From the NCBI GenBank assembly GCA_964520655.1, contig CAZFNI010000006.1, positions 14,790 through 78,789 of the forward strand: 64,000 bases of DNA, in the 5' to 3' direction. This document shows, piece after piece, positions 14,104 through 64,000 of this stretch. The notes below the pieces were generated by a model, which made no database searches, was not told the DNA's origin, and was given only the letters and a program-made list of their open reading frames with translations. The number at the start of each line of letters is the position of its first letter. Within the stretch, counting starts at the first letter, position 1. The translations under genes and the position numbers were made by a program. The stretch is from an uncultured Planctomycetales bacterium. Lineage in GTDB: Bacteria > Omnitrophota > Gorgyraeia > Zapsychrales > Fredricksoniimonadaceae.

Positions 14104-14511
14104 GGGGGTGATTGGTCTCGACTTGTTTAGCTCGAGGTTAGATGGCATGCCGGGGAAGCTTGGTCGGCCCCGATACCAATCCAAGCACAAATTACACGCT
14201 AACAACACGTTAACGTTCGACGGTGTTATGGCGGAATTCGCGAAAAGCGAAGCTCCGGCAGAAGCCGTTGCTGTCTAAGCTCAAGTAGCTTAGCCTGTTT
14301 ACCTAGAACGCCTGCTACTGGGATAAACAGCCGAAAGCAGGCTGCTCCAAATGGATGCTCTTAACGTTTGGCTAAGACTTCATAGGGCTGGCTTTATGTT
14401 GCTCCTGTCTGCTGGAAGACATAAAGCGATGATCATGTAAACAGACTACGCATGTAGATGTCTCTCCTTAGAAACTCAAGGACCCGGGTTCGATCCCCGG
14501 CACCTCCACCA
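14104..14511 (+). ncRNA. ssrA: tmRNA (SsrA), one-piece, with encoded CCA
   Basis: 5' GGGGGTGATTGGTCTCGAC... and 3' ...GGACCCGGGTTCGATCCCCGGCACCTCCACCA. The acceptor stem GGGGGTG/CACCTCC pairs with one G-U, and there is a tRNA-like T arm. A candidate tag ORF AEFAKSEAPAEAVAV-stop lies at about 14232-14279. Confidence 0.9.
14490..14511 (+). repeat. attL-like copy of a direct repeat (the 3' end of ssrA)
   Basis: tcgatccccggcacctccacca; repeated with one mismatch at 18208-18229. Confidence 0.75.
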
Positions 14512-16261: not shown

Positions 16262-16573
16262 ATGATTAAACTAAGTAGCAGAACTTTAAAATTAATTAAA
16301 ATTTTTTACGAATTTGAAGAAGAACAAGAAGAAGTAATTTCAGTATTAGAAAATCAATGTGCTGATAATCTGCCATTTTGTGAGAATGGAACTCCATTAT
16401 CGATGGAAAGAATCAGATTTTCAGTATTAAGGCTTGATAAAGAACATGGGGAATTTAATCAATGGGTAAAATTGGCTAATATAGATTGGCGGGATTTATT
16501 TATTGCTGCTGGATTTGGTGATACAGATGCGCACTTAGATTGGGCCAACAAGTTAATAGAACAAAGAACTTGA
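16262..16573 (+). CDS. island hypothetical acidic protein
   Basis: AT-rich ORF, 103 aa; followed by repeat R2. Confidence 0.3.
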   Translation: MIKLSSRTLKLIKIFYEFEEEQEEVISVLENQCADNLPFCENGTPLSMERIRFSVLRLDKEHGEFNQWVKLANIDWRDLFIAAGFGDTDAHLDWANKLIEQRT

Positions 16574-49965: not shown

Positions 49966-51609
49966 ATGACAATGAGTAACATCAATTTAGCATCGATCGG
50001 GATCACCTCATATAGCAATGCATACCATAATCTGTCTTTTGCGGACCTCTTTAAACACGAAACGGATCCATCTTTACAGGGTTATGAAAAAGGTGTTGTC
50101 ACCAGCTTAGGCGCTGTGTCTGTCGATACAGGAAAATTCACGGGACGTTCTCCTAAAGATAAATATATCGTCAAGGATGCTTCCACGCAGGATACGGTCT
50201 GGTGGGCCAGTGGTGAATCATCTGGGTCAGATAATAAGCCGATCACGGTGGATACCTGGGCTCATTTAAAAGATATCACGTTAAAGCAGCTGAATGGGAA
50301 AAAGCTGTATGTCATGGATGGTTTCTGCGGGGCCAATGCTTCGACCCGTTTGTCCGTGCGTTTGGTCACCGAGGTCGCCTGGATGGCCCATTTCTTTAAG
50401 AATATGTTCATCGCCCCAACAGCGGATGAATTAAAGAATTTCAAGCCGGACTGGACGGTTTTAAATGCCTGCAAGGCCTCTTGCGCTGATTTTGCCAAGT
50501 ACGGCCTGCGCAGTGAAGTGTTCGTGGCCTTTAATATCAGTGAACGTACCACGGTCATCGGCGGTACCTGGTACGGCGGGGAGATCAAGAAGGGTATTTT
50601 TTCGATCATGAATTATTTCCTGCCTCTTAAAGGGATTGGGGCATTCCATTGTTCTGCCAACCAGGGCAAGAATGGCGATACTGCGCTGTTCTTCGGTCTG
50701 TCAGGGACGGGAAAGACAACATTGTCGACGGATCCAAAACGCGCGCTGATCGGTGATGATGAGCATGGCTGGGATAATGACGGGGTGTTTAACTTTGAAG
50801 GCGGCTGTTATGCCAAATGCATCGGCCTTACCCCCGAGCGCGAGCCAGAGATCTTCGCGGCGATCCGCCGTGACGCTTTATTGGAGAATTGCGAGATCGA
50901 TGCCAAAGGTGTTGTTGATTTCGCTTCGAAGAAAAAGACCGAGAATACCCGTGTCTCTTATCCGCTAAATCATATTGAAAATATTGTCAAGCCGGTCTCT
51001 AAAGGCGGGCATCCTTCAAAGATCATCTTTTTGGCGTGTGACGCTTACGGCGTTTTACCACCGGTGGCCAAATTGACCAAAGAGCAGGCCATGTACCATT
51101 ACTTAAGCGGGTATACAGCAAAGGTCGCAGGCACAGAACTTGGGGTCAAAGAACCATCTGCCACATTCTCCGCGTGTTTCGGCAAAGCATTCCTGTCCGT
51201 CCATCCGACTAAGTATGCGGATATCCTGGCCAAGAAAATGCAGGAACACAATGCCAGTGCCTATTTGCTTAATACCGGCTGGATCGCCGGTCCTTACGGT
51301 GTGGGTTACCGCATTCCGTTGAAAGACAACCGTTTGTCGATCGATGCGATCCTAGACGGCAGTTTGGATAAAGGGCCGTTTGATATTTTACCGGTCTTTA
51401 ATCTCCAAGTCCCTCGTTCTGTGAAGGGGATGGATGCTAACATATTGAATCCACGTAACTTATGGGCGGACAAAGCGGCCTATGACGCGCAGGCGGTCAA
51501 ATTAGCCGGCATGTTCATCAACAATTTTAAGATCTTCACTGATACAGCGAATGGGAAAGCGCTTGTCGCGGCAGGACCGCAAATAGAGCTTGCTAATTCC
51601 GGACGTTAA
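49966..51609 (+). CDS. pckA: phosphoenolpyruvate carboxykinase (ATP)
   Basis: Kinase-1a [11 protein letters not shown] and PEPCK-ATP signature regions. Confidence 0.9.
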
Positions 51610-51625
51610 GTGGTATAGTTGAAAT

Positions 51626-52000
51626 ATGAGCACTTTAGGGCGAAAAATAACAGCAGTATGTGTGGCGGCATCATTTATGATGGCGGCGCTTTACTGCTGT
51701 TGTTTTTCTACCATCAAATGGTCGAAACAAAAAAGCTCCTGTTGTGCGGCCAAAGAAAGTAAGGATCAAAAGACTTCCAAGCAGGATTGCCCTCACTGCA
51801 ACAGTTCCTTTCACGCGGAGTTGGCATTAAAAGATACGGGGCATGTTACCCTGGCAGCTGTTGATGCCTTGCCTGTTACTTTTGAGAGAACAATATCCTA
51901 CGTGCCTGTTGTTGTCGGAAAGTCTTTATTCATCAATGGACCGCCCGGTCCGTTGCATACTGTTCCCTTATATATCAAGTTCCCTTCTTTGCGCATTTAA
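51626..52000 (+). CDS. hypothetical Cys-rich small membrane protein
   Basis: TM followed by CCC/CC/CPHC clusters; immediately upstream of the metal efflux genes. Confidence 0.3.
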   Translation: MSTLGRKITAVCVAASFMMAALYCCCFSTIKWSKQKSSCCAAKESKDQKTSKQDCPHCNSSFHAELALKDTGHVTLAAVDALPVTFERTISYVPVVVGKSLFINGPPGPLHTVPLYIKFPSLRI

Positions 52001-52046
52001 TCCCTTGCGATAAGACTGTCTAATCGTTTTATAACAAGGAGATTCT

Positions 52047-53096
52047 ATGCGTACGTTCTTACAATTATTTCTCATCATGATCTTTGCCGCGGCAGCACCG
52101 GTCAGTTATGCCAAAGACCTGTATTATTGCCCGATGCATACGCATTACACCTCGGATAAGCCAGGCTCATGCCCCATTTGCGGGATGAATCTGGTGAAGA
52201 AAGTTGATGAGGCGGACAAAGCAAAAGGTTCGGGGATCATGGATCATGCGGCGGTGACATTAAGCGCCGATCAGCAAAAAATGCTGGGGGTTGTGACCGC
52301 TAAAGCCACCAAACAGCCGTTGAAACGCATGATCAGGGCCAGTGGTTATGTCTCGACGCTCAATGATCTATTCATGCTGCAGGATACTTATATTAAAGCT
52401 TACATTGATTATGTGCAGGCCTACCGTGACCAAAAACGGTTTGAGCATGGCCGCCGCAACTGGGATGTCCACCGGGAGATCCAGGTCAGATTGCATAATG
52501 CCCAGGAGGCATTGCTTCAGTTCGGGATCAGCGATGTTGAGATCGAGAAGTTAAAGAAATATTCCTGGCAGACGCCTTGGGATCAGCCGGAATTATCATT
52601 CTTCAAGCCGGGTGTCAATTACTGGGTGGTGGCGTCCGTGTATGAACAGGACCTGGGTTATCTGGAATCCGGACAGCCTGTCGATATAGAGATCCCATCC
52701 TATCATGAACATGTCAAAGGGGTTATCCGTACGATCGGCAAGATCATTGATCCTCAGACACGCACGGTCAATGCCTTGATCGAGATGCCGGACTATAAGG
52801 GAGAGCTGGTCGGCAATATGTTCGTCAATGTGACGGTTGATGTGGAGTTAAACGAGTATGTGATGGTGCCCCAGGAGGCGCTGATGGATACGGGATTGCG
52901 CAAGATCATTTTTGTTAAAGATGGTCATGGGGTTTTTGTGCCCAAAGAGGTCAAGGACGTTGTTCCCGGGGATAATGGCTGGGGGATCAAGATGGGTATT
53001 GTCGTCGGTGAAGAGGTCGTGGTGCAGGGAAACTTCCTGCTGGATTCCGAAAGCCGCATGCAGGCGTCCTTGCGGGGAGGGCAGGACCATGATTGA
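52047..53096 (+). CDS. RND efflux periplasmic adaptor (CusB-like) with N-terminal metal-binding module
   Basis: YYCPMHTHYTSDKPGSCPICGMNL metal-binding domain; membrane-fusion-protein beta-barrel/lipoyl layout. Confidence 0.7.
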   Translation: MRTFLQLFLIMIFAAAAPVSYAKDLYYCPMHTHYTSDKPGSCPICGMNLVKKVDEADKAKGSGIMDHAAVTLSADQQKMLGVVTAKATKQPLKRMIRASGYVSTLNDLFMLQDTYIKAYIDYVQAYRDQKRFEHGRRNWDVHREIQVRLHNAQEALLQFGISDVEIEKLKKYSWQTPWDQPELSFFKPGVNYWVVASVYEQDLGYLESGQPVDIEIPSYHEHVKGVIRTIGKIIDPQTRTVNALIEMPDYKGELVGNMFVNVTVDVELNEYVMVPQEALMDTGLRKIIFVKDGHGVFVPKEVKDVVPGDNGWGIKMGIVVGEEVVVQGNFLLDSESRMQASLRGGQDHD

Positions 53097-56000
53097 AAAG
53101 ATCATTGACTTTTCCGCCAGGAATAAGTTCCTGGTGTTCTTGTTGGTGGGGTTCGCTCTAGGGATCGCGTTGTGGTCGGCGAAAAACATTGCTGTTGATG
53201 CTATTCCCGACCTTTCTGATACCCAGGTGATCGTGTATTCCAAATGGGACCGCAGTCCCGATGTGATGGAAGACCAGGTGACATATCCGATCATTTCTTC
53301 CCTGCTGGGGATCCCCAATATCAAGGATATCCGCGGGTTCTCGGATTTTGGGTATTCCTATGTGTATGTGATCTTCAAGGATGGGACAGACCTGTACTGG
53401 GCGCGCAGCCGCGTGCAGGAATTCTTATCGAAGATCACATCGACGCTGCCAGCCGGTGTGAAGACCCAACTGGGTCCGGATGCGACCGGTGTCGGCTGGG
53501 TCATGCAGTATGCGCTGGTGGATAAAAACGGCAAACATTCCCTGCAGGAGTTGCGTAGTTTTCAGGATTGGAATCTGCGTTACCATTTACAAAGCGTGCC
53601 CGGCGTCGCGGAAGTGGCGTCATTGGGAGGGTTTGTCAAACAGTACCAGATCACCCTGGATCCCAATAAACTGCAGGCGGTCAAGGTACCGATCAATAGG
53701 GTCGTGTCTGCGGTACGGGATGCTAATCAGGAGGGCGGCGGGCGGTTGTTGGAGTTTTCCGGTGCGGAATACATGGTGCGCGGCCATGGGTATATCAAGG
53801 AGGTCAAAGACCTTGAGAATGTGGTGCTTAACGTCAATGCCAAAGGTGCACCGCTTTTGCTTAAAGACGTGGCCAATATCCATATAGGGCCGGATATGCG
53901 CCGGGGAGTTCTGGATTTAGATGGTCAGGGTGATGTTGTCGGCGGCACGATCGTGATGCGCCAGGGCGAGAATGCCCTGCGGGTCATCGATGCGGTCAAG
54001 GCGAGGCTAAACGACCTGAAAAGCAGCCTTCCCGACGGTGTGGAGGTGGTGATCACTTATGACCGTTCCGATCTGATCAAAAGTTCCATGGACAATCTGC
54101 GTCGTCAATTGATCGAGGAAATGATCATTGTCAGTCTGGTCATTCTGGTGTTCTTGTGGCATTTTTCATCCGCCATCATCCCGATCGTGACGATCCCGAT
54201 CAGTGTCTTTTTGTCGTTCATTTTTTTAAAGGCGCTGAATTTAACCTCCAACATCATGTCGCTGGCGGGGATCGCTATCTCGATCGGCGTTCTGGTCGAT
54301 GGGGCGATCGTGCAGATGGAGAATGTGTATAAACGCCTTGAGGAATGGCAGGCTGATGGCAAGAAGGGTCCGGCGGCACCTGTGATCCTAAACGCGCTAA
54401 AAGAAGTTGCGCCGTCCGTGTTCTTTTCCCTGCTTGTCATCGCGGTGTCGTTCTTGCCGATCTTTACCCTGCTGGACCAGGAGGGACGCTTGTTTAAACC
54501 TCTGGCCTGGTCGAAGACTTTTGCCATGGCCATCGCGGCTGTGCTTGTCATCACGCTTAATCCGGCGCTGCGCATGATGTTTGCCAGCGGCAAGGGTAAT
54601 TATTATCCGGAACATAAACATCCGATCAGCCGGATCTTGTTCATGGTCTATGATCCCATTTGCCGGCTGGCATTGAAACATGCCAAGGCCGTGATCATTG
54701 CCAGCATTTTGTTAGTCGCGGCGACCGTTCCGGTATTCCTGAAGCTTGGGTCGGAATTCATGCCGACATTGTGGGAAGGCCAGATCCTGTATATGCCGAC
54801 CACCATGCCCGGTATCTCTATTGCCCAGGCCCAGACTCTCCTGCAGAAACAGGATGCGGTTTTGAAATCATTTCCGGAGGTGGAAAGGGTCTTTGGAAAA
54901 GCGGGGCGGATGGAAACATCAACGGATCCGGCGCCTTTGTCCATGATGGAAACAGTGGTGCTGCTAAAGCCGGAGAAAGAATGGCCGCTTGTCAACGGCA
55001 AACGCCGCGGCCATGAACAGCTCATTGAGGCGATGGATCAGGCGTTAAAGATCCCTGGCACATCCAATGCCTGGACAATGCCGATCAAAAACCGCATTGA
55101 CATGCTTTCCACAGGTATCCGCACACCGATCGGCATCAAGGTGATGGGCAAGAACTTAGATGAGATCGAGAAAATAGGTCTGAAGCTGGAGCATGTGCTT
55201 AAAGATGTTCCGGGTACGCGCAGTGTTTTTGCTGAGCGTGTGACCGGTGGGTATTTTCTGGACATTGATATTCGTCGCGATCAGATCGCCCGTTATGGAT
55301 TTAGCATCGGTGATGTCCAGATGGCGATCAATGCCGCGATCGGCGGGGAAGAGATCACGACCACTGTTGAAGGCCGTGAACGCTACAGCGTGAACGTGCG
55401 CTACGCCCGGGAATTGCGGGATGATGTCGAGAAGTTAAAAAGGGTTTTGGTCGCCAACGAAGCAGGGCAGCAGGTACCGTTGGGCCAGTTGGCCCAGATC
55501 GTCATGCGCAGCGGGCCGGCGATGATCCGCGATGAGAACGGGATGCTCACCGGATACGTGTTCGTGGATGTGAAAAGCAATGACATCGGCGGATACGTGA
55601 ACGCGGCCAAGAAAAAGGTCGAGGAGCAGCTTCAAGTCCCCACAGGGTATGTGCTGTTGTGGAGCGGGCAGTTCGAGAATATGCTTAGGGTCAAGGAACG
55701 GCTGAAAGTTGTCGTTCCCTTGACGCTGTTGATCATTGTGGTGCTGCTGTATTTCAATACCAAGTCGTGGATCAAGACGGGCATTGTCATGCTGGCCGTG
55801 CCTTTCTCATTGATCGGCGCGGTGTGGTTACTCTGGGCCTTGGGGTATAACCTGTCGATCGCCGTATGGGTCGGGATGATCGCGCTCATGGGGCTTGACG
55901 CGGAGACGGGTGTGTTGATGCTGCTGTTTTTGGACATCGCCTACCATGATGCCCTTAAGAAAAATAAATTAAATTCCCCTGAAGAATTACGGGAAGCCGT

Positions 56001-56238
56001 TGTTTTTGGAGCTGTACAGCGTGTCAGGCCGAAGATGATGACGGTCATGGCGGCCATGATGGGGCTTATGCCCATCATGTGGTCACATGGTAGCGGTGCG
56101 GACGTGATGAGCCGTATCGCAGCTCCGATGATCGGCGGTCTGATCACGTCGTTTGTTCTGGAATTACTGGTCTATCCGTGCATTTTTTATCTATGGAAAT
56201 CCAAGGGGGTTTCCAGTAACATAACAAACAGTAAATAA
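53089..56238 (+). CDS. heavy-metal efflux RND transporter (CusA/CzcA family)
   Basis: Start trimmed to MIEKIIDFSARNKFLV; 12-TM RND architecture with two large periplasmic loops; HME-family motifs. Confidence 0.85.
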   Translation: MIEKIIDFSARNKFLVFLLVGFALGIALWSAKNIAVDAIPDLSDTQVIVYSKWDRSPDVMEDQVTYPIISSLLGIPNIKDIRGFSDFGYSYVYVIFKDGTDLYWARSRVQEFLSKITSTLPAGVKTQLGPDATGVGWVMQYALVDKNGKHSLQELRSFQDWNLRYHLQSVPGVAEVASLGGFVKQYQITLDPNKLQAVKVPINRVVSAVRDANQEGGGRLLEFSGAEYMVRGHGYIKEVKDLENVVLNVNAKGAPLLLKDVANIHIGPDMRRGVLDLDGQGDVVGGTIVMRQGENALRVIDAVKARLNDLKSSLPDGVEVVITYDRSDLIKSSMDNLRRQLIEEMIIVSLVILVFLWHFSSAIIPIVTIPISVFLSFIFLKALNLTSNIMSLAGIAISIGVLVDGAIVQMENVYKRLEEWQADGKKGPAAPVILNALKEVAPSVFFSLLVIAVSFLPIFTLLDQEGRLFKPLAWSKTFAMAIAAVLVITLNPALRMMFASGKGNYYPEHKHPISRILFMVYDPICRLALKHAKAVIIASILLVAATVPVFLKLGSEFMPTLWEGQILYMPTTMPGISIAQAQTLLQKQDAVLKSFPEVERVFGKAGRMETSTDPAPLSMMETVVLLKPEKEWPLVNGKRRGHEQLIEAMDQALKIPGTSNAWTMPIKNRIDMLSTGIRTPIGIKVMGKNLDEIEKIGLKLEHVLKDVPGTRSVFAERVTGGYFLDIDIRRDQIARYGFSIGDVQMAINAAIGGEEITTTVEGRERYSVNVRYARELRDDVEKLKRVLVANEAGQQVPLGQLAQIVMRSGPAMIRDENGMLTGYVFVDVKSNDIGGYVNAAKKKVEEQLQVPTGYVLLWSGQFENMLRVKERLKVVVPLTLLIIVVLLYFNTKSWIKTGIVMLAVPFSLIGAVWLLWALGYNLSIAVWVGMIALMGLDAETGVLMLLFLDIAYHDALKKNKLNSPEELREAVVFGAVQRVRPKMMTVMAAMMGLMPIMWSHGSGADVMSRIAAPMIGGLITSFVLELLVYPCIFYLWKSKGVSSNITNSK

Positions 56239-56251
56239 AAGAGGAGGAAGT

Positions 56252-56545
56252 ATGAACAAGGTATTCATGTTCGTGTTAACCGCAGGTTTGATGTTGACGC
56301 CGATGATGGTGCGTGCCCAACAAGCGGCCGGCGATCAGGCCGAGGTCAAAGCTGTTGAAGTCGGCAACAAACTGTGCCCTGTTTCAGGAGAGGAAGTCGG
56401 CAAAATGGGTCCGGCGGTAAAATTGGAACACGAGGGTAAGATCTATAATCTTTGCTGTGCCATGTGCGCGAAAGATTTTAAGAATGATCCCGCGAAGTTC
56501 GCTAAAAAAGCAGAAGATGAGGTGGCTGCGGCTGCGGCCAAGTAA
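56252..56545 (+). CDS. YHS-domain periplasmic metal-binding protein
   Basis: Signal peptide; CPVSGEEV...YNLCCAMCAKDF TRASH/YHS signature. Confidence 0.5.
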   Translation: MNKVFMFVLTAGLMLTPMMVRAQQAAGDQAEVKAVEVGNKLCPVSGEEVGKMGPAVKLEHEGKIYNLCCAMCAKDFKNDPAKFAKKAEDEVAAAAAK

Positions 56546-56550
56546 GACGT

Positions 56551-56958
56551 ATGTTCGAACACCTGCATCCAAAACTGGTGCATTTTCCCATTGCCTTGGT
56601 CATTACGGCAATGATCTTGGATGTGATGGGTTCGATCGTCAAGAAAGATGCATTGCATCACGCCGCCAGGTATGTGTTTAACCTGGCGGCGTTTTTTTCT
56701 ATCCTTTCACTATTCACAGGATTAGCAGAGGCGGATCGCCTGCATTTGAATCATCCTGTCCTTCTCGCGCACCGGTCATATGCTTTTGTTTTGACTGTTT
56801 TTTCTGTGATATTCTCAGTCGCGTTATTCTTTATTCCTGAGCGTTATAAGCGGCCGATATTCACTATAATGCTGTTGATCTGCACAGTCCTAGTCGTTGC
56901 GACTGGACATTACGGCGGGCAAATGGTCTATGGTTACGGTATCGGTATTGACGGGTGA
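56551..56958 (+). CDS. DUF2231-like membrane protein
   Basis: HPKLVHFPIAL N-terminal motif, 4 TM helices. Confidence 0.45.
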   Translation: MFEHLHPKLVHFPIALVITAMILDVMGSIVKKDALHHAARYVFNLAAFFSILSLFTGLAEADRLHLNHPVLLAHRSYAFVLTVFSVIFSVALFFIPERYKRPIFTIMLLICTVLVVATGHYGGQMVYGYGIGIDG

Positions 56959-57046
56959 TTTTAGTCGACCTTTATGTTGACGGTCTTTTTTTTTGAGGCA
57001 TAATTTATTTCGTCAGGAGAACACCAAGATCAATAAGGGGGTTAAT

Positions 57047-57331
57047 ATGAAGAATATCATGATTATTATGGCTGCAGCGTTGGTTTGGTCCTCTTCTTTT
57101 AGCCCGGCATTCGCATTGCTTCGGAAAGATTTTGCCGCAGTGGAAGGTCCGGTCATTGCCAAGAACGTTAAAACCAAAGAGATCACTGTTAAGAGCAGCG
57201 ACGGGTCTCTTCAAATATTCGCGGCAGATGATAACCAATGGGGCTCGGTGCGTGAGGGGGATAAAGTCTTGATCCTCCACCAAAAGCAAACTAAAGTGAT
57301 CAGTACATTAGTTGTGACCCAGCCTAAGTAA
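57047..57331 (+). CDS. small secreted protein
   Basis: Start trimmed to MKNIMIIMAAAL signal peptide. Confidence 0.4.
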   Translation: MKNIMIIMAAALVWSSSFSPAFALLRKDFAAVEGPVIAKNVKTKEITVKSSDGSLQIFAADDNQWGSVREGDKVLILHQKQTKVISTLVVTQPK

Positions 57332-57370
57332 TGATCCTTATGTTATACAGAAACATAAGAGAGGTGGCGT

Positions 57371-57961
57371 ATGTCCCATGAAATTTTATTGGTTTTTGTG
57401 CCAATGTTCTTTGCGATGGACCCGGTGGGTCTTCTGCCCATTTTTGTGGCATTGACCACGGGCCTGGATAAGTCCGCCAAGGAAAAGATCATTATCCAGT
57501 CGCTGGCCACGGCTTCTCTGGTCGCTGTTGGGTTTATTTTTCTAGGCCGATGGGCATTTGCGCTACTTGGCATCACCATGGGGGATTTCATGGTCGCCGG
57601 CGGCTTGATCTTATGCTGTTTATCCATACTCGACCTGTGCGGACGCAGCAAGACCCCTCAATTTGACGCGGATGATGTCGGTGCCGTGCCGATCGGCACG
57701 CCGTTGATCGTCGGTCCTGCGGTATTGACCATGAGCTTGATCTTAATGCCTCAGTATGGACCTGTGGTGACGCTTGGCGCCGTGTTCATGAATATCTTTA
57801 TTGTCGGGATCATTTTTATATTTTCTGATTTCTTGATCCAGGTGATCGGCAAAAGCGGTTCCATGGCGTTGTCGAAAGTATTATCGCTATTATTAGCCGC
57901 GATCGGGATCATGATGATCCGTCGCGGTATCCTGGAGATGGTCACGACTGTCCGCAGCTGA
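57371..57961 (+). CDS. MarC family (UPF0056) membrane protein
   Basis: 6-TM protein, 196 aa, MarC family layout. Confidence 0.6.
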   Translation: MSHEILLVFVPMFFAMDPVGLLPIFVALTTGLDKSAKEKIIIQSLATASLVAVGFIFLGRWAFALLGITMGDFMVAGGLILCCLSILDLCGRSKTPQFDADDVGAVPIGTPLIVGPAVLTMSLILMPQYGPVVTLGAVFMNIFIVGIIFIFSDFLIQVIGKSGSMALSKVLSLLLAAIGIMMIRRGILEMVTTVRS

Positions 57962-57962
57962 T

Positions 57963-59156
57963 ATGGCACTTAGCATATTCAAACGATATGTGTTCACATT
58001 GGTGCTGACCATTGCTTCCCTGGCGGTGGTCGGGATGACGCTGGTGTATTTCCTAATCGCGACTCCGCTGGGCGGCAGGCTTTTGGTTAATTATCTGCTC
58101 CTGCAATCTGCTCAGGCGGCCTCCGTCAGCATCGAAACATTCTCGGGCAATCTTAAAGAAGGGCTGACGTTAAAGAATGTGCGGATCATCAACTGGCCGT
58201 TGTTCGGGCCGGAAGCATCTATTTTGGCCCAGCGTGTTGATGTTCGTCTGCCTGTCTTGAATCTGGATAAGATCGAGGTGACCATTTTTAATGCCCGCAT
58301 GGACCTGCCCAACAGCGACCCGTTGCTATTCCATGGGCAGCTAAAGAATGGGATGTTAAGCGGGGACCTGGAAGCCAAAATGTTGGACGTGTCTCCTTTG
58401 ATGAAGGCATTTGTTAAGACGGATCTCTATAAACTGGTGCACGGTACAGCGACTTCCGGTAAGATCGATGTGGCGGGGCCAGTTTCAAACCCCACGCTTA
58501 AAGGCGGATTTGTGGCTGATAAGATCACCTATGGAGACAAGGTGGTGCATCAGATATTTGCCAAGGTTGATGTGAATGTGGCGTTTGAAGGTGACAGGTT
58601 TGTGATGCACGGATTGGTCATTTTAGATGGGGGACAGGTAGATGTGGGTAAGAATACCTTTGATCTGATCCCAAGTAAAGTGACTTTCAAGGATAATTTG
58701 ATCGATCCGGATGTGGATCTGCGCTGTACGATCCATAAGGATATTTATGATATTGAGATACGAATCCTGGGAACGATCAAGCATAATAAGATCTCCGCGC
58801 GCTGCGATCCATATCTTCCCCAGGAGGATGTGTTTATCCTGTTGGGAATGGGCAATTGGGCTCCGTTGACGGGCTCATTGCTCAACTATCAGGAGGATGC
58901 GAAGCTGTTCGGTTTAAAAAGAAAACTTGGTGAGAACCTTAATGTGGGGTATGGTTATGAGGAATCTTCTCAAAACTTGAGGGGGGAATCGAATTCAATG
59001 CAGTTTCTGCAGGGGCAGATGTCCTTGTCTGAAGGGCTGTCCGTGAATGTGGAAAAAACGATCTCCTCCACGCATGAAGGAGACAGGTTCAACAGATTCG
59101 ACAACCGCAAAGACAATGAATCCCGTTTGTATTTGAAGTATCGCAATACCTTCTAG
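57963..59156 (+). CDS. hypothetical membrane-anchored protein (AsmA/TamB-like fragment?)
   Basis: N-terminal TM and beta-rich periplasmic region; weak resemblance to AsmA-like proteins. Confidence 0.3.
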   Translation: MALSIFKRYVFTLVLTIASLAVVGMTLVYFLIATPLGGRLLVNYLLLQSAQAASVSIETFSGNLKEGLTLKNVRIINWPLFGPEASILAQRVDVRLPVLNLDKIEVTIFNARMDLPNSDPLLFHGQLKNGMLSGDLEAKMLDVSPLMKAFVKTDLYKLVHGTATSGKIDVAGPVSNPTLKGGFVADKITYGDKVVHQIFAKVDVNVAFEGDRFVMHGLVILDGGQVDVGKNTFDLIPSKVTFKDNLIDPDVDLRCTIHKDIYDIEIRILGTIKHNKISARCDPYLPQEDVFILLGMGNWAPLTGSLLNYQEDAKLFGLKRKLGENLNVGYGYEESSQNLRGESNSMQFLQGQMSLSEGLSVNVEKTISSTHEGDRFNRFDNRKDNESRLYLKYRNTF

Positions 59157-59256
59157 GATCCGCAGTAAAATAGTTTTATTATTCGTTGAGTAAAACCGAA
59201 CGCTCTGTTATCTTAAAATTATTATTTGTTTATCAATCTAACGAAAGGTTATTCCT

Positions 59257-60419
59257 ATGTCTAAAAGGCTCTTGCTTGTGTTTGCTTTGGCAGCGGCAGG
59301 TGTTTCTCCGGCGGTCGCGGGAGAGCTTTTATTGCCCAAAGAACGGGCTGAATTAGCTGAAAAGGGCTTGAGTATTGAGGTGCGCGCTCTGGAGGATTAT
59401 GTCAGCGTCATGAAAGGCGGAACAGTCCATAAAGATACCTGGATGGGGCGTCTTGATGTCGGTGTAGAAGTAGATCTGGAAAAAGCCAATATCGTCAAGG
59501 GCGGTTTGGTCCATGTCGACGTGATGAATGCGCACGGCGGTTTGAAGCCGACCGCGGACATGATCGGCGATCTGCAGACGGTCAGCAATATCGAAGCGCC
59601 GCGCACGACGCGTCTGTATGAAGCGTGGTATCAGCAGGCGTTTGATGAAACGCTGTCCATGAAAGCGGGGCTTTGTATATCAACAGCGCATTTGGCGTGA
59701 TCCCCAGCATCTCAGTGAATACAAGCCTTTCGATCTTTCCATTGAACGGCCTGGGGGCGACCGTGAAATATTCTCCCTGCAAGGCATTTGATCTTCTGGC
59801 AGGGGTATTTGACGGGGATGTCGGTGATCCGGATGAGAATATCCATAACACCAATATCAATTTAAGATTCAAACAATTGTTCACGGTGGTAGAGGGCGCT
59901 GCTCATTTTGATTTGCCGGCCCAGACCGCTTTGCCGGGGACGATCAAATTAGGCGCCTGGCATAATAGCAGCGATGTCCCGGATGTGGCGGAAGTAGATG
60001 ACAACGGGGATCCGGTCATGCATGATGATAATTATGGTGCTTATGCTCTGTTGGACCAGCAGTTGTTCAAGGAGGCTGATGATCAAGGGTTGTCGTTCGT
60101 TTATATTGGCGGCTTGGCGCCTCAGAAGCGTAATACCGTCCGTTATCAAAATAGTTTTGGTCTAAATTATGCCGGGCTTTTGCCGAGCCGTGATAAGGAT
60201 GTGGCCGGTATCGCTATGACGCAGTCAAAGATCAGCAAGAAGTTGCGCGATGTATCGAGCCAGGATCCGGCGGAATCTACCTACGAGCTGACCTACAGGT
60301 TTGAGGTTAACGATAATATCCATATTCAACCCGATTTTCAGTATGTGCAACGGCCAAACGCGGATGATAACATCAAGAATGCCAGTGTCTTTATGCTGAG
60401 ATCTGACATTCAATTTTAA
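59257..60419 (+). pseudogene. carbohydrate-selective porin OprB family, interrupted by a frameshift near 59673-59700
   Basis: Two adjacent ORFs (59257-59700, 59673-60419) in different frames. Joined, they read ...LSMKAGL(Y)INSAFGVIPS..., the conserved OprB N-terminal motif. Confidence 0.55.
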
Positions 60420-60429
60420 AGGAAAATGT

Positions 60430-60948
60430 ATGCGTAAATTCATGGGAGTGTTGGTTGCGGGAATGTTGTTAATGGTGCCTTTTAAAGGTTTTGCGGCGGA
60501 TGATGTGGCTGTTGTCGGCAAGCAGGTCAAAATGGACTATACGTTGACCGTGGATAATAAAGAGGTGGAAACATCCATAGGCAAAGAGCCTTTGGTTTTT
60601 GTTTTGGGCGGCCAGGCGATCATCCCGGGTTTAGAAAAGGCGATCTTGGGGATGCATACCGGTGAAGAGAAGATGGTGACGGTGGAAGCGGCCGATGCGT
60701 ACGGTCAGCCGGATCCCAAAGCGGTCAAGGAATTCCCCAAAACATCCATGCCCAAGGGCTTGGAATTAAAGCCTGGTCTTATCCTGCAGGCCAATGCTCC
60801 AGACGGTTCCAGTTTTCCGTCGGTGATCAAAGAGGTCAAGGACACAACAGTCCTTTTGGATTTCAACCATCCGCTGGCGGGCAAACAATTGCAGTTTAAG
60901 ATCAAGATCGTCGCTGTTGAAGCAGCGCCGGTCCAGCCAACGAAATGA
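60430..60948 (+). CDS. FKBP-type peptidyl-prolyl cis-trans isomerase
   Basis: Signal peptide; VKMDYTLTVDNKEVETS...LVFVLGGQAIIPGLEKAILGM FKBP fold motifs. Confidence 0.7.
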   Translation: MRKFMGVLVAGMLLMVPFKGFAADDVAVVGKQVKMDYTLTVDNKEVETSIGKEPLVFVLGGQAIIPGLEKAILGMHTGEEKMVTVEAADAYGQPDPKAVKEFPKTSMPKGLELKPGLILQANAPDGSSFPSVIKEVKDTTVLLDFNHPLAGKQLQFKIKIVAVEAAPVQPTK

Positions 60949-60963
60949 TTTAACGAGAATACT

Positions 60964-61401
60964 ATGATCCAGGAGATCCTGCATTCGATCAAGCTTGCTG
61001 ATATCATGACCAAACCGGTTGTCACGGTCAGTAGTCAGGATGAATTCCATGTGGTATGGGAAAAGATGGCGGCTCATGATATCCGCCATATCCCGGTTGT
61101 TGATCATGCGGGCACATTAGTTGGTATCATCACCGAGAGGAATTTGTTCAAGATCCATTCTCCACGCAAGCTGGAGGATGGATCTTGGTTCTATGACAAG
61201 GATATGCTGGATGGTTTTATCCTCACCAAAGTCATGGTCCAGGAGCCGTTTTTTCTAAAACCGCAGAATACGATCCGGGAGGCTATGCAGGTCATAGCCC
61301 AGTTCAAATACGGATGCATCCCCGTTGTCGATGACAATAAAGTCCCTGTCGGCATCATCACCAGAAATAACATCATTAAGTTCTTCCTCAACCATGCCTG
61401 A
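60964..61401 (+). CDS. CBS domain pair protein
   Basis: Two CBS repeats (DIRHIPVVD..., GCIPVVDD...). Confidence 0.7.
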   Translation: MIQEILHSIKLADIMTKPVVTVSSQDEFHVVWEKMAAHDIRHIPVVDHAGTLVGIITERNLFKIHSPRKLEDGSWFYDKDMLDGFILTKVMVQEPFFLKPQNTIREAMQVIAQFKYGCIPVVDDNKVPVGIITRNNIIKFFLNHA

Positions 61402-62587
61402 TGCCAACGTTATTCTAAAAGCTGCAGGTGCTGCCGGCGCTTTGCTGCTGCTGTATTATTTCAGGCGGCAGCGGGAGAAATGCCGATCCCTCGAACGTGC
61501 GAATGCGGAACTGCAAGAGAAGATCAGCCGTCAAGATAGTCGGTCGTCTGCGGAGCGCAGCGAGCTCAATGTCATCCTCTCCAGCATGGTGGAAGGGGTC
61601 TTGGTCATTGGTCGTGACGAGAAGATCCAGTACATTTCCCCTAATCTTTCCGCCATGTTCGATTTTCGCTCCAAAGAAGTGACGGCCAGGCCGTATTGGG
61701 AAATGATCCCTCATGCACAGGTCATCAGCGCCATCAAGGAGTCGATCGCATCAGCTGGGGCTATCAGCCGGGAGATCACGCTGTTCCAGGTAGAGGATGT
61801 TGTTTTTAATATCCAGGTCTCCCCAGTGTTGAACAACGGGGCATTGATGGGGGCTGTGGTGGTGTTCCATGACATCAGCGCGTTAAAGAAATTGCTTAAG
61901 ATGCGTTCTGAATTTGTGGCCAATGTCTCGCATGAATTAAAGACCCCCCTGACCTCCATCAAAGGTTACGTGGAGACGTTAAGCGAGCCGGGCGGTATGG
62001 ACGACAAAGAAACTATCCAGAAATTTTTGAAAGTGATCCATAAGCAGACCTTACGGTTAGAAGCGCTAGTCAAAGACCTGTTGACCATATCCTCGATCGA
62101 AAGCAAAGAGGTTGCCATGGATCTGCAGCCCTGCGATGTGGCGGCGCTGGTCAATAATACGGTCAACAGTTTAAAGAATGTGATCGATGCGGCGCGCCAT
62201 AAGGTTGTGTTGAATATTGCCCCTCAGTTGCCCATGATCATTGTTGACCGCAGCCGCATGGAGCAGGTTCTGGTCAATTTACTGGAAAATGCTGTCAAGT
62301 TCGCGCCTGCTGGGGGAACCATTGAGATCGCCGTAAAAGAACAAGAGCCTTATGTAGCTATAAGCGTCACCGATTCCGGCATCGGTATCGCCCCGGAACA
62401 TTTGCCACGATTGTTCGAGCGTTTTTACCGGGTGGATAAATCCCGTTCATCTGAACTTGGCGGTACCGGCCTTGGGTTAGCTATCGTTAAACATATTGTT
62501 TTAGCCCATCAAGGCAGGGTGGATGTCAAAAGCAAACCCGGCTCCGGCACCACATTCACCATCTTCCTTCCAGTTTCCAAGAATTAA
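61394..62587 (+). CDS. sensor histidine kinase (TM, PAS, HisKA, HATPase_c)
   Basis: H-box SHELKTPLTSI, N-box LLENAVKF, G-boxes DSGIGI and GGTGLGLAIV. Confidence 0.8.
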   Translation: MPDANVILKAAGAAGALLLLYYFRRQREKCRSLERANAELQEKISRQDSRSSAERSELNVILSSMVEGVLVIGRDEKIQYISPNLSAMFDFRSKEVTARPYWEMIPHAQVISAIKESIASAGAISREITLFQVEDVVFNIQVSPVLNNGALMGAVVVFHDISALKKLLKMRSEFVANVSHELKTPLTSIKGYVETLSEPGGMDDKETIQKFLKVIHKQTLRLEALVKDLLTISSIESKEVAMDLQPCDVAALVNNTVNSLKNVIDAARHKVVLNIAPQLPMIIVDRSRMEQVLVNLLENAVKFAPAGGTIEIAVKEQEPYVAISVTDSGIGIAPEHLPRLFERFYRVDKSRSSELGGTGLGLAIVKHIVLAHQGRVDVKSKPGSGTTFTIFLPVSKN

Positions 62588-62611
62588 TTTTCGAAACGGG
62601 TCCTGTCACCG

Positions 62612-62786
62612 ATTGCGGATGCTGGTATAAGTTTTTACGGCTCCGGTGGTCTTTTTCCATCGATCTTTTCTAGATGTCCAGTCCCACAACGCACCGACAA
62701 AAAGCATCGGTGCTGTGGGACTGAATCGGCGACGCAGATCGATGGGACCACAGTCGCCTTAAAAAACTTATACCAGCATCCGCAAT
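62612..62786. repeat. 175-bp imperfect palindrome with 25-bp perfect terminal inverted repeats (MITE-like or structured-RNA element)
   Basis: ATTGCGGATGCTGGTATAAGTTTTT at 62612-62636 and its exact reverse complement at 62762-62786. The interior is also largely self-complementary (catcgatct/agatcgatg, gtcccacaacgcaccga/tcggtgctgtgggac). Confidence 0.7.
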
Positions 62787-62832
62787 TATATTACGTTCTA
62801 TACTCATGATATGTAATGACCAGTTAGCCAAC

Positions 62833-63004
62833 CCGCAGGGATACGGGATGTTCTTTCAAAGATGCGAACGTCCCCCACCAGATGCCACCCCATAAATTCA
62901 TACTTTAACGAATAACCCCAAGCGTAGCATTCAACCAACGTGCATCTGTTGTGGGGGCTGGGGGGGTGAGCATCTGGAAAGAAGCATCCCGTGTCCCTGC
63001 GGGG
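62833..63004. repeat. second, unrelated 170-bp imperfect palindrome
   Basis: cccgcagggatacgggatgttctttcaaagatgc... at the left matches the reverse complement of ...gcatctggaaagaagcatcccgtgtccctgcgggg at the right, with few mismatches. Confidence 0.6.
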
Positions 63005-63100
63005 CCCTTAACATAATCTTAATATTGGCTTTATTTGTCCTTAACACGCGCTGGGTACACTGACAGGGTATAAAAGATAAAACGTTTAAGGAGAGAAATT

Positions 63101-64000
63101 ATGAAAAAGATCCTCGCAGTGCTGTTGATCATGGTGTTTGGAGCGGCAAATTTGAGTTTTGCGGCGCCGGATACCCAGGTGGATGCCTTGATCGCCAAGT
63201 TGATCGAGAAGGGTATTCTGACCAAGGATGAAGCGGATGTGCTTAAAGGCCAGGTCGCCTACGATGCCAAGCAGATCCAGGAAACCAACATGAAAAAAGA
63301 TCTTCCGGACTGGGTGCAGAACACCAAGTTGACCGGGGATTTCCGTATCCGTAACCAATACGAGCACCGCAAGAACAATTCCAGCTCACTTAATGGTCGC
63401 GACAGGGTGCGCATGCGCGCGCGTTTAGGTTTAGAAACCAAAGTCAATGATACTTTCAAAATGGCGGTGGGTATTGCCACCGACGGTGGCGCGGCCCGCT
63501 CCAATAATTACACTTTTGACAGCAGTTTTGGTAAAGGCAATGTCGTCTTAAATTATGCCTACGGTCAATGGCTGCCGAATTCGGAATGGACATTAACAGC
63601 TGGTCAGATGAAAAATCCGATCTGGGAACCGATGGAATTCTTGTGGGATTCCGACATTACGCCTCAAGGGGCCGCTGTTGAATATAATAAAAAATTAAGC
63701 GATTATTTGACCTTAAACGTCCTGGGGACGGGATTTGTGGTCAAAGAATTGCCTTTGTCCAACGCTGATCCCTACCTGTGGGTTGGTCAATTGGGTGCCA
63801 AAGGTAATTTCTTCACGGAAAAAGCAGATTACCGTTTGGTCGGGACGTATCAATATCTGCAGAATAATACCAAAGCAACATTTGGTTCATCTGCCAACAA
63901 TACGATCAGCGCCAGCAAGTATGTGAACCGCTATAACACGCCGATGGCGTCCGGCGAGATCGGTTTGAATGATCCGTTGGGGGACAATGGGTTCTTATAT
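63101..64000 (+). CDS. putative outer-membrane porin-like protein (5' partial; continues beyond the window)
   Basis: Manual translation from the ATG at 63101 (GGAGAG RBS) is open to the window end. It shows a signal peptide MKKILAVLLIMVFGAANLSFA, a coiled-coil plug region, then alternating beta-strand-like segments. Confidence 0.45.
   Translation, partial: MKKILAVLLIMVFGAANLSFAAPDTQVDALIAKLIEKGILTKDEADVLKGQVAYDAKQIQETNMKKDLPDWVQNTKLTGDFRIRNQYEHRKNNSSSLNGRDRVRMRARLGLETKVNDTFKMAVGIATDGGAARSNNYTFDSSFGKGNVVLNYAYGQWLPNSEWTLTAGQMKNPIWEPMEFLWDSDITPQGAAVEYNKKLSDYLTLNVLGTGFVVKELPLSNADPYLWVGQLGAKGNFFTEKADYRLVGTYQYLQNNTKATFGSSANNTISASKYVNRYNTPMASGEIGLNDPLGDNGFLY

Follow-up and report, generated by a model that had tools for sequence, protein, structure and literature searches.

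A 175-nt palindromic element lies directly downstream of a histidine kinase gene in the 64-kb stretch of DNA from an Omnitrophota bacterium analysed here (hereafter the window, meaning the whole stretch). Is it a mobile element, a gene for a long-hairpin RNA, an oversized terminator or the trace of some other event, and what stood in its place before? A preliminary description had set the first three possibilities side by side and had named presence or absence in the orthologous gap of relatives as a test of mobility.

Structure and setting of the hairpin

An inverted-repeat scan, folding and the alignment of one half against the other bore out the reported outline of the element, which we call hairpin 1. 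It is a quasi-palindrome of 175 nt at 62612..62786, assigned to neither strand, and its ends are perfect 25-nt arms. The left arm (62612..62636, + strand) reads ATTGCGGATGCTGGTATAAGTTTTT and the right arm (62762..62786, − strand) is its exact reverse complement, the two being 100% complementary with 125 nt between them. Both arms were delimited by the inverted-repeat scan and by a search with the 25-mer, which found only these two sites in the 64-kb window even when up to three mismatches were allowed; in the control for the arm, 0 of 100 dinucleotide shuffles held a match. Part of the left arm, TGGTATAAG, may be read as an extended −10-like string pointing inward, a promoter-like reading suggested by the letters themselves; a consensus scan found no sigma-70-like site in 62400-63200. 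The only ORF in hairpin 1 (53 aa, − strand) has no Pfam match. It was also seen that the arm reads TTG CGG ATG CTG GTA TAA (LRMLV*) at 62613-62630, and that the frame of the kinase gene stays open for 73 sense codons past its TAA, through all of hairpin 1 (62588-62806). Such an open stretch is expected by chance in about 3% of cases and is probably a coincidence.

The gene upstream (61394..62587, + strand) encodes a PhoR-type sensor histidine kinase of 397 aa, recognised by its Pfam domains (PAS, HisKA and HATPase_c) and by the names of its homologues. These carry the JGI name 'phosphate regulon sensor histidine kinase PhoR' and come, where an organism is named, from Omnitrophota/Omnitrophica; the exact phoR product of the window is recorded in GCA_041910255.1. 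Hairpin 1 begins 24 nt past the phoR stop codon (62585-62587), in agreement with its reported place after a histidine kinase gene. Downstream lies a gene for a Porin_5-family porin (63101..64000, + strand, by Pfam Porin_5), which extends beyond the window. In the independent assembly L005 (GCA_041910255.1, contig JAYRRC010000013.1) this gene encodes 417 aa and comes first in an operon of the order porin-pstS-pstC-pstA-pstB-pstB-phoU. No transposase or recombinase appears in the L005 gene list among the 24 genes from −11 to +10 kb of the element.

Two features of other genes in the window were noted in passing. An OprB-family porin gene upstream of phoR is found as two overlapping ORFs, 59257-59700 (147 aa) and 59673-60419 (240-248 aa), both here and in L005 and L006, while the relative L023 has it as a single gene of 403 aa, which suggests that the split gene is frameshifted or decaying. 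The tmRNA gene at 14104-14511 is predicted to encode a tag peptide of 26 residues (ANNTLTFDGVMAEFAKSEAPAEAVAV), which is unusually long.

Folded as RNA, the 175 nt form a single long hairpin, with a minimum free energy (MFE) of −98.7 kcal/mol on the + strand and −106.8 kcal/mol on the − strand. Shuffled sequences averaged about −45 and none of 200 was equally stable, giving z-scores of −14.9 (+) and −16.4 (−); DNA parameters give an MFE of −61.2 kcal/mol (z = −13.6). The interior is G+C-rich and nearly palindromic, and the claim that it is largely self-complementary thus holds, with the qualification that its pairing is not uniform. The left half aligned to the reverse complement of the right half with 67 matches, 11 mismatches and 18 gap positions, and the mismatches are clustered: perfect helices of 25, 6-7, 10, 10 and 7 bp alternate with wholly unpaired blocks, which include an internal loop of 12 × 12 nt (TTTCTAGATGTC facing AATCGGCGACGC) and a 5-T bulge. 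This block-wise pairing is unlike the random decay of a perfect palindrome and looks designed rather than accidental. There are two G-U pairs on each strand, and therefore neither strand is favoured as the transcribed one.

All 175 nt are identical in L005, and the gap as a whole differs between the two genomes at 2 positions in 541 nt. Over 51394-64000 the divergence between the window and L005 is a mosaic, with 500-nt bins that hold from 0 to 54 differences, which indicates frequent homologous recombination in the population; the most divergent stretch, with about 9% differences, is 59894-60893, adjoining the split porin gene. Purifying selection on the gap was considered and rejected, as the whole block 61400-64000 is nearly identical in this alignment and the near identity of the gap is therefore uninformative on selection.

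A 412-nt segment in place of part of the ancestral gap

To see what the gap looks like elsewhere, the loci of kinase and porin homologues were fetched and compared. The order FKBP-CBS-phoR-gap-porin-pst is kept in eight related loci (L014, L017/L018, L019, L025, L026, L028 and L029), where the phoR-porin gap measures 136-277 nt, compared with 513 nt in the window. A long hairpin was found in none of the six relatives whose gap was fully read (plus duplicate contigs), including the one with 91-96% nucleotide identity, and long inverted repeats were absent both from the relatives' gaps and from about 60 kb of related loci. The pattern of presence and absence that had been named beforehand as a test of mobility is thus the one observed, and it is not that of a conserved riboregulator.

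The gaps of the relatives have an architecture of their own. A first Pho-box-like array (Pho box 1) stands directly after the phoR stop and is followed by a −10-like (C/T)(C/G)TATACT box, that of promoter P1, and by a ribosome-binding site; at the downstream end come Pho box 2 and then the porin promoter. The six fully read relatives have the Pho boxes in common, and four of them also have a small ORF, which sits between the two arrays, upstream of porin-pst, with its own −10-like box and ribosome-binding site. This conserved ORF has 20 codons (L014 5254-5316, L017 5262-5324, L026 4266-4328, L028 1089-1151 and L029 446-508) and the consensus M..E.lQYiLElvF....., of which MSQEVLQYILEVVFKVNLDI, MTWEMVQYILELFVDFNREL and MTPEIFNYLLELVFQLEMEY are examples. 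L023 has a version truncated to 12 codons, the ORF is lacking from L019, L025 and the window, and the L028 copy is followed by a small terminator-like hairpin. The ORF may be an unannotated phosphate-regulated small protein or a leader peptide. The gap is variable in another lineage as well. In L023, the relative nearest by kinase score, the phoR stop is directly followed by an ordinary G+C-rich hairpin, and in GCA_031386565.1 (L023 4430-4486 and L030 1-145) the gap is rearranged, with a different gene start (MPIKFNVTKKRGK...) after the small ORF and a porin gene that has no Pho box upstream; the contigs end there. The phoR-porin gap seems to be an insertion hot spot.

Pho box 2 is still present in the window (63007..63046, + strand), where it was located by a pattern scan and by its presence in relatives. 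It consists of four direct half-sites with an 11-nt period and reads CTTAACA TAAT CTTAATA TTGG CTTTATT TGTC CTTAACA. Where 1.2 matches to the Pho-box pattern would be expected in the window there are five, three of which overlap at this site; the same array stands upstream of the porin gene in L014, L017, L019, L025, L026, L028 and L029. From the direct-repeat geometry and the pst context we infer that the CTTAAYA array is probably a PhoB-binding Pho box. Its final half-site starts 16 nt ahead of a −10-like TACACT (63056-63061), a spacing equal to that at P1 of the relatives. A weaker Pho-box-like match was observed at 16425-16442 (− strand), in an AT-rich gap of 479 nt at about 16.4 kb.

The boundaries of the change were obtained from the closest relative, L028, a Logan contig from SRR12404957 whose identity to L005 is 90.9% in the 3′ kilobase of phoR and 95.7% across porin-pstS. 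L028 holds the ancestral gap of 268 nt, with Pho box 1, the −10 box, the 20-codon ORF and Pho box 2. Similarity between the window and L028 ends at 62591/62592, 4 nt past the phoR stop, and restarts at 63003/63004, precisely at the right end of a second hairpin. Between these points 412 nt in the window (62592..63003, no strand assigned) stand in place of 166 nt of ancestral sequence. In this lineage-specific segment hairpin 1 follows a lead-in of 20 nt and is separated from hairpin 2 by 45 nt of spacer. Nothing in it resembles the ancestral segment: when its parts were aligned locally to that sequence, each on both strands, every score had z < 2 against shuffles. Its G+C content is 50%, compared with 37% in its ancestral counterpart and about 40% in other non-coding stretches of the window. 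Hairpin 1 is carried only by strains within about 2% divergence and is absent at 4-9% divergence. Hairpin 1 is therefore young, and part of a larger novel segment. L028 provides a site without the element, but the filled and the empty site differ by the replacement of 166 by 412 nt, not by a clean 175-bp insertion. A 13-of-14 direct repeat (GTCACCGATTCCGG and GTCACCGATTGCGG), one copy of which lies in the coding region of the kinase G1 box and the other at the left junction, was treated as a chance match.

Hairpin 2 (62832..63003, 172 nt, no strand assigned), identified by the inverted-repeat scan and by folding, is the only other long hairpin that the scan found in the 64-kb window, and it lies 45 nt downstream of hairpin 1. 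Its arms, of about 44 nt, are imperfect (75% complementary) and enclose a non-palindromic interior of 84 nt; the two strands fold with MFEs of −88.7 (z = −6.8) and −87.6 kcal/mol (z = −5.6), and its G-U pairs number two on one strand and three on the other. The possibility that the two hairpins are diverged copies of one family was rejected, their global alignment giving z < 1. The spacer between them (62787..62831, + strand) was delimited by sequence reading and by comparison with L019, and contains at 62796-62804 the 9-mer TTCTATACT, which is also found, letter for letter, at the P1 −10 box of L019. This 9-mer may be a remnant of P1 or a chance match; the local alignment of the spacer to the ancestral segment is insignificant. 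An ATG at 62806, after TTCTATACT, opens an ORF of 29 codons with no ribosome-binding site.

Origin and possible role of the segment

If hairpin 1 belonged to a mobile family, further copies might be expected, and none was found. There is no second hairpin copy in the 64-kb window and 8.6 kb beyond it (one copy in 72 kb), nor in the other loci that were fetched. The scans of sequence collections used exact 18-21-mers, which diverged copies would escape. Among 185,579 GTDB species-representative genomes no copy of hairpin 1 was found; the exact 18-mer gave seven single-arm matches in unrelated taxa. Two of these (L012 and L013) are the 3′ ends of Bacteroidota genes for a 2-oxoacid dehydrogenase E2 acyltransferase (...LRMLV*, TTGCGGATGCTGGTATAA), which we judged a coincidence, and the others, in unrelated ORFs that read ADAGIS, were set aside as chance or coding coincidence. 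The single match of an exact 21-mer in JGI metagenomes, within a phage tape-measure-like ORF, was likewise rejected as chance. IMG/VR was queried with five pieces (the arm and the interior of hairpin 1, the arm of hairpin 2, the spacer and the hairpin 2 loop), two of which had no match; the hairpin 1 arm gave two isolated matches of 19 and 21 nt that are not copies, and from the hairpin 2 loop one 20-mer recurs exactly in a giant-virus MAG, where the match does not extend further. The whole gap had no blastn match in phage and plasmid records. The open frame through hairpin 1 was also translated and searched, as a way to catch spurious ORFs called on other copies of the hairpin, and had no homologue among 5.8 billion predicted proteins.

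A target-site duplication was not found either. The flanks read ...GTCACCG before and TATATTA... after the element, and the only candidate duplication is a palindromic AT, indistinguishable from the last 2 nt of the arms. The arm weakly resembles the terminal repeat of IS1 (GATGCTG core); the duplication of 8-9 bp made by IS1 is absent. No IS or transposase was seen around the element in the window. The suggestion of a MITE-like element is thus upheld in part: the presence/absence pattern speaks for it, and the missing target-site duplication, the absence of a second copy from all that was searched and the lack of a clean 175-bp insertion speak against it.

Our preferred reading, to which we give a probability of roughly one half, is that hairpin 1 is an orphan piece of palindromic DNA, foldback or MITE-like, which came from a foreign or mobile source and took the place of the P1/small-ORF module; such an origin would hold for the 412-nt segment as a whole. 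The lineage of the window would have recently acquired a 412-bp, G+C-richer segment with two unrelated hairpin modules, by insertion, by recombination or by both. The block-wise pairing of hairpin 1 finds no explanation in this reading. The arrival of this segment would have ousted the ancestral Pho box 1, promoter P1, the 20-codon ORF and the small terminator-like hairpin, so that the lineage would have lost its first Pho-regulated promoter together with the small ORF. A transcript reading through from phoR is predicted to fold into two extremely stable hairpins, which would block 3′-5′ exonucleases and probably also pause or terminate transcription. The promoter at Pho box 2, which still stands intact before the porin-pst operon, would be insulated by such a barrier. 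The hairpins and the replacement together likely leave a transcription or exonuclease barrier after phoR and one Pho promoter fewer.

If this reading is right, the locus offers a small, datable case, from an uncultured phylum that has been little studied, of a regulatory region rewired by palindromic DNA. The lineage would have given up one of its two Pho-box promoters along with a conserved ORF of 20 codons, two very stable hairpins would lie between a phosphate sensor gene and an uptake operon, and the insulation of that operon from upstream transcription could change. The finding opens no long-standing question, and the conserved Pho-box-driven small ORF in Omnitrophota may be of wider interest than the hairpin.

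The hairpins could instead be a functional structured RNA, acquired to replace the P1/small-ORF module and serving as a stabiliser of the phoR 3′ UTR, as an oversized terminator or as a hairpin RNA in its own right that RNase III might cleave. We regard this as unlikely, although the extreme stability on either strand agrees with it, as does the stability of the whole phoR-porin gap of the window (z = −11.9). Perfect helices that alternate with internal loops of equal length are also like those of protein-recognised hairpins, and the location directly past the phoR stop, where L023 has its ordinary hairpin, would fit. Yet no Rfam 15 family is found in the region at gathering score or even at E < 0.5; the best relaxed matches, of 14-18 bits and E ≥ 0.8, are to eukaryotic miRNA and snoRNA models. 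Neither hairpin is followed by a U-tract, the sequence after hairpin 1 being UAUAUUACGUU and that after hairpin 2 GCCCUUAACA. The G-U counts favour no strand in either hairpin, the absence of the element from all relatives leaves covariation with nothing to act on as evidence, and the identity between the two carrier strains is uninformative within their nearly identical block. The earlier idea of a long-hairpin RNA gene thus finds nothing in its favour: Rfam has no match, G-U pairs are in excess on neither strand, and conservation does not extend past a single species-level lineage.

A similarly doubtful account is that of a local, non-mobile rearrangement scar, in which a single event of recombination or template switching, at a variable intergenic hot spot, made the palindrome or brought it in, with no transposition mechanism and no function. 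The single copy across all searches would be as expected, and so would a change that is a replacement rather than an insertion and that left no target-site duplication. The rearrangement of the same gap in GCA_031386565.1 and the mosaic divergence of the strains, with the frequent recombination to which it points, are in line with this account too. Against it, neither half of either hairpin is similar to the ancestral sequence of the site, and the hairpins are therefore not inverted duplications of prior local DNA; a single accident would hardly yield two unrelated long palindromes next to each other, and 25-nt perfect terminal arms are typical of transposon ends.

Rather improbably, the two hairpins might jointly constitute a kind of element that has not been described: either a mobile or recombination cassette of Omnitrophota that consists of hairpins alone and makes no target duplication on insertion, or a structured RNA or DNA module that a protein recognises by its precise pattern of helices and internal loops of equal length and that took over the role of the Pho-regulated small-ORF unit ahead of the phosphate-uptake operon.

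It is very improbable that hairpin 1 is an inverton, with the 25-bp repeats serving as recombination sites for the inversion of the 125-bp stretch between them, ahead of an outer-membrane porin operon. The perfect repeats are of inverton-like length and surround a short segment upstream of a surface-protein operon, and both short-read contigs that reach hairpin 1, L001 and L006, break inside it. These breaks, however, fall 10 and 22 nt beyond the arm and not at its edge, and all four independent sequences (the window, L005, L001 and L006) have the same orientation, reading ...AAGTTTTTACGGCTCCGG. Flipping an interior that is near-palindromic and has no promoter would change little, the recombinase that it calls for is missing from −11 to +10 kb, and the porin promoter and its Pho box lie outside hairpin 1, downstream and past hairpin 2. 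Finally, fold-back chimeras in long-read data can make palindromes, but the reading of hairpin 1 as such an assembly artefact is effectively refuted by L005, an independent NCBI assembly with the same 175 nt and flanking kilobases that differ by up to 10%, and by L001 and L006, Logan contigs from other samples that end in the left 35-47 nt of hairpin 1.

Comparison with known classes of palindromic DNA

Hairpin 1 is neither a conserved riboregulator nor a canonical terminator. Like an intrinsic (Rho-independent) terminator it stands directly past a stop codon, but it has 87 potential pairs against the 5-15 of such terminators, and it lacks the U-tract; the terminator scan returned only a trivial 6-bp stem inside it. 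The judgement of the preliminary description that the element is too long for a simple terminator was sound.

With the REP, BIME and REPIN sequences hairpin 1 has in common that it is extragenic palindromic DNA after the 3′ end of a gene; when transcribed, those sequences stabilise the upstream mRNA and can attenuate read-through. REP units, however, are palindromes of 20-40 nt that occur in tens to hundreds of copies and are linked to a RAYT transposase, whereas the 25-nt arm of hairpin 1 is not itself palindromic and the element is found once in 72 kb. Invertons share with it the perfect inverted repeats of about 25 bp around a short segment upstream of a surface-protein operon, and differ from it in that its interior is promoterless and near-palindromic, no recombinase is nearby and one orientation is seen in four sequences.

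The closest likeness is to the miniature inverted-repeat elements. Bacterial MITEs such as Chunjie and Nezha are classically marked by terminal inverted repeats and by long, very stable stem-loops (about −100 kcal/mol), and the accepted argument for their mobility is the comparison of filled and empty sites in close relatives (PMC3184786). Hairpin 1 shares with Chunjie of Geobacter, Nezha of cyanobacteria and Correia of Neisseria (PMC3184786) a size of 100-400 bp, an intergenic position and the lack of a transposase ORF; like them it ends in inverted repeats of about 25 nt, is predicted to fold into a stem-loop near −100 kcal/mol and varies in presence among close relatives. Hairpin 1 indeed has the terminal inverted repeats and a long stable stem-loop, and at 175 nt it is free of transposase and below the limit of about 400 bp. 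In contrast to these MITEs it has no flanking direct repeats, no second copy that we found and no known parent IS with matching ends, and its filled site is a replacement that includes a second, unrelated hairpin. Since neither a target-site duplication nor an empty site that differs only by the element was found, we do not class hairpin 1 as a MITE, yet among the known classes it is the MITEs that it most resembles.
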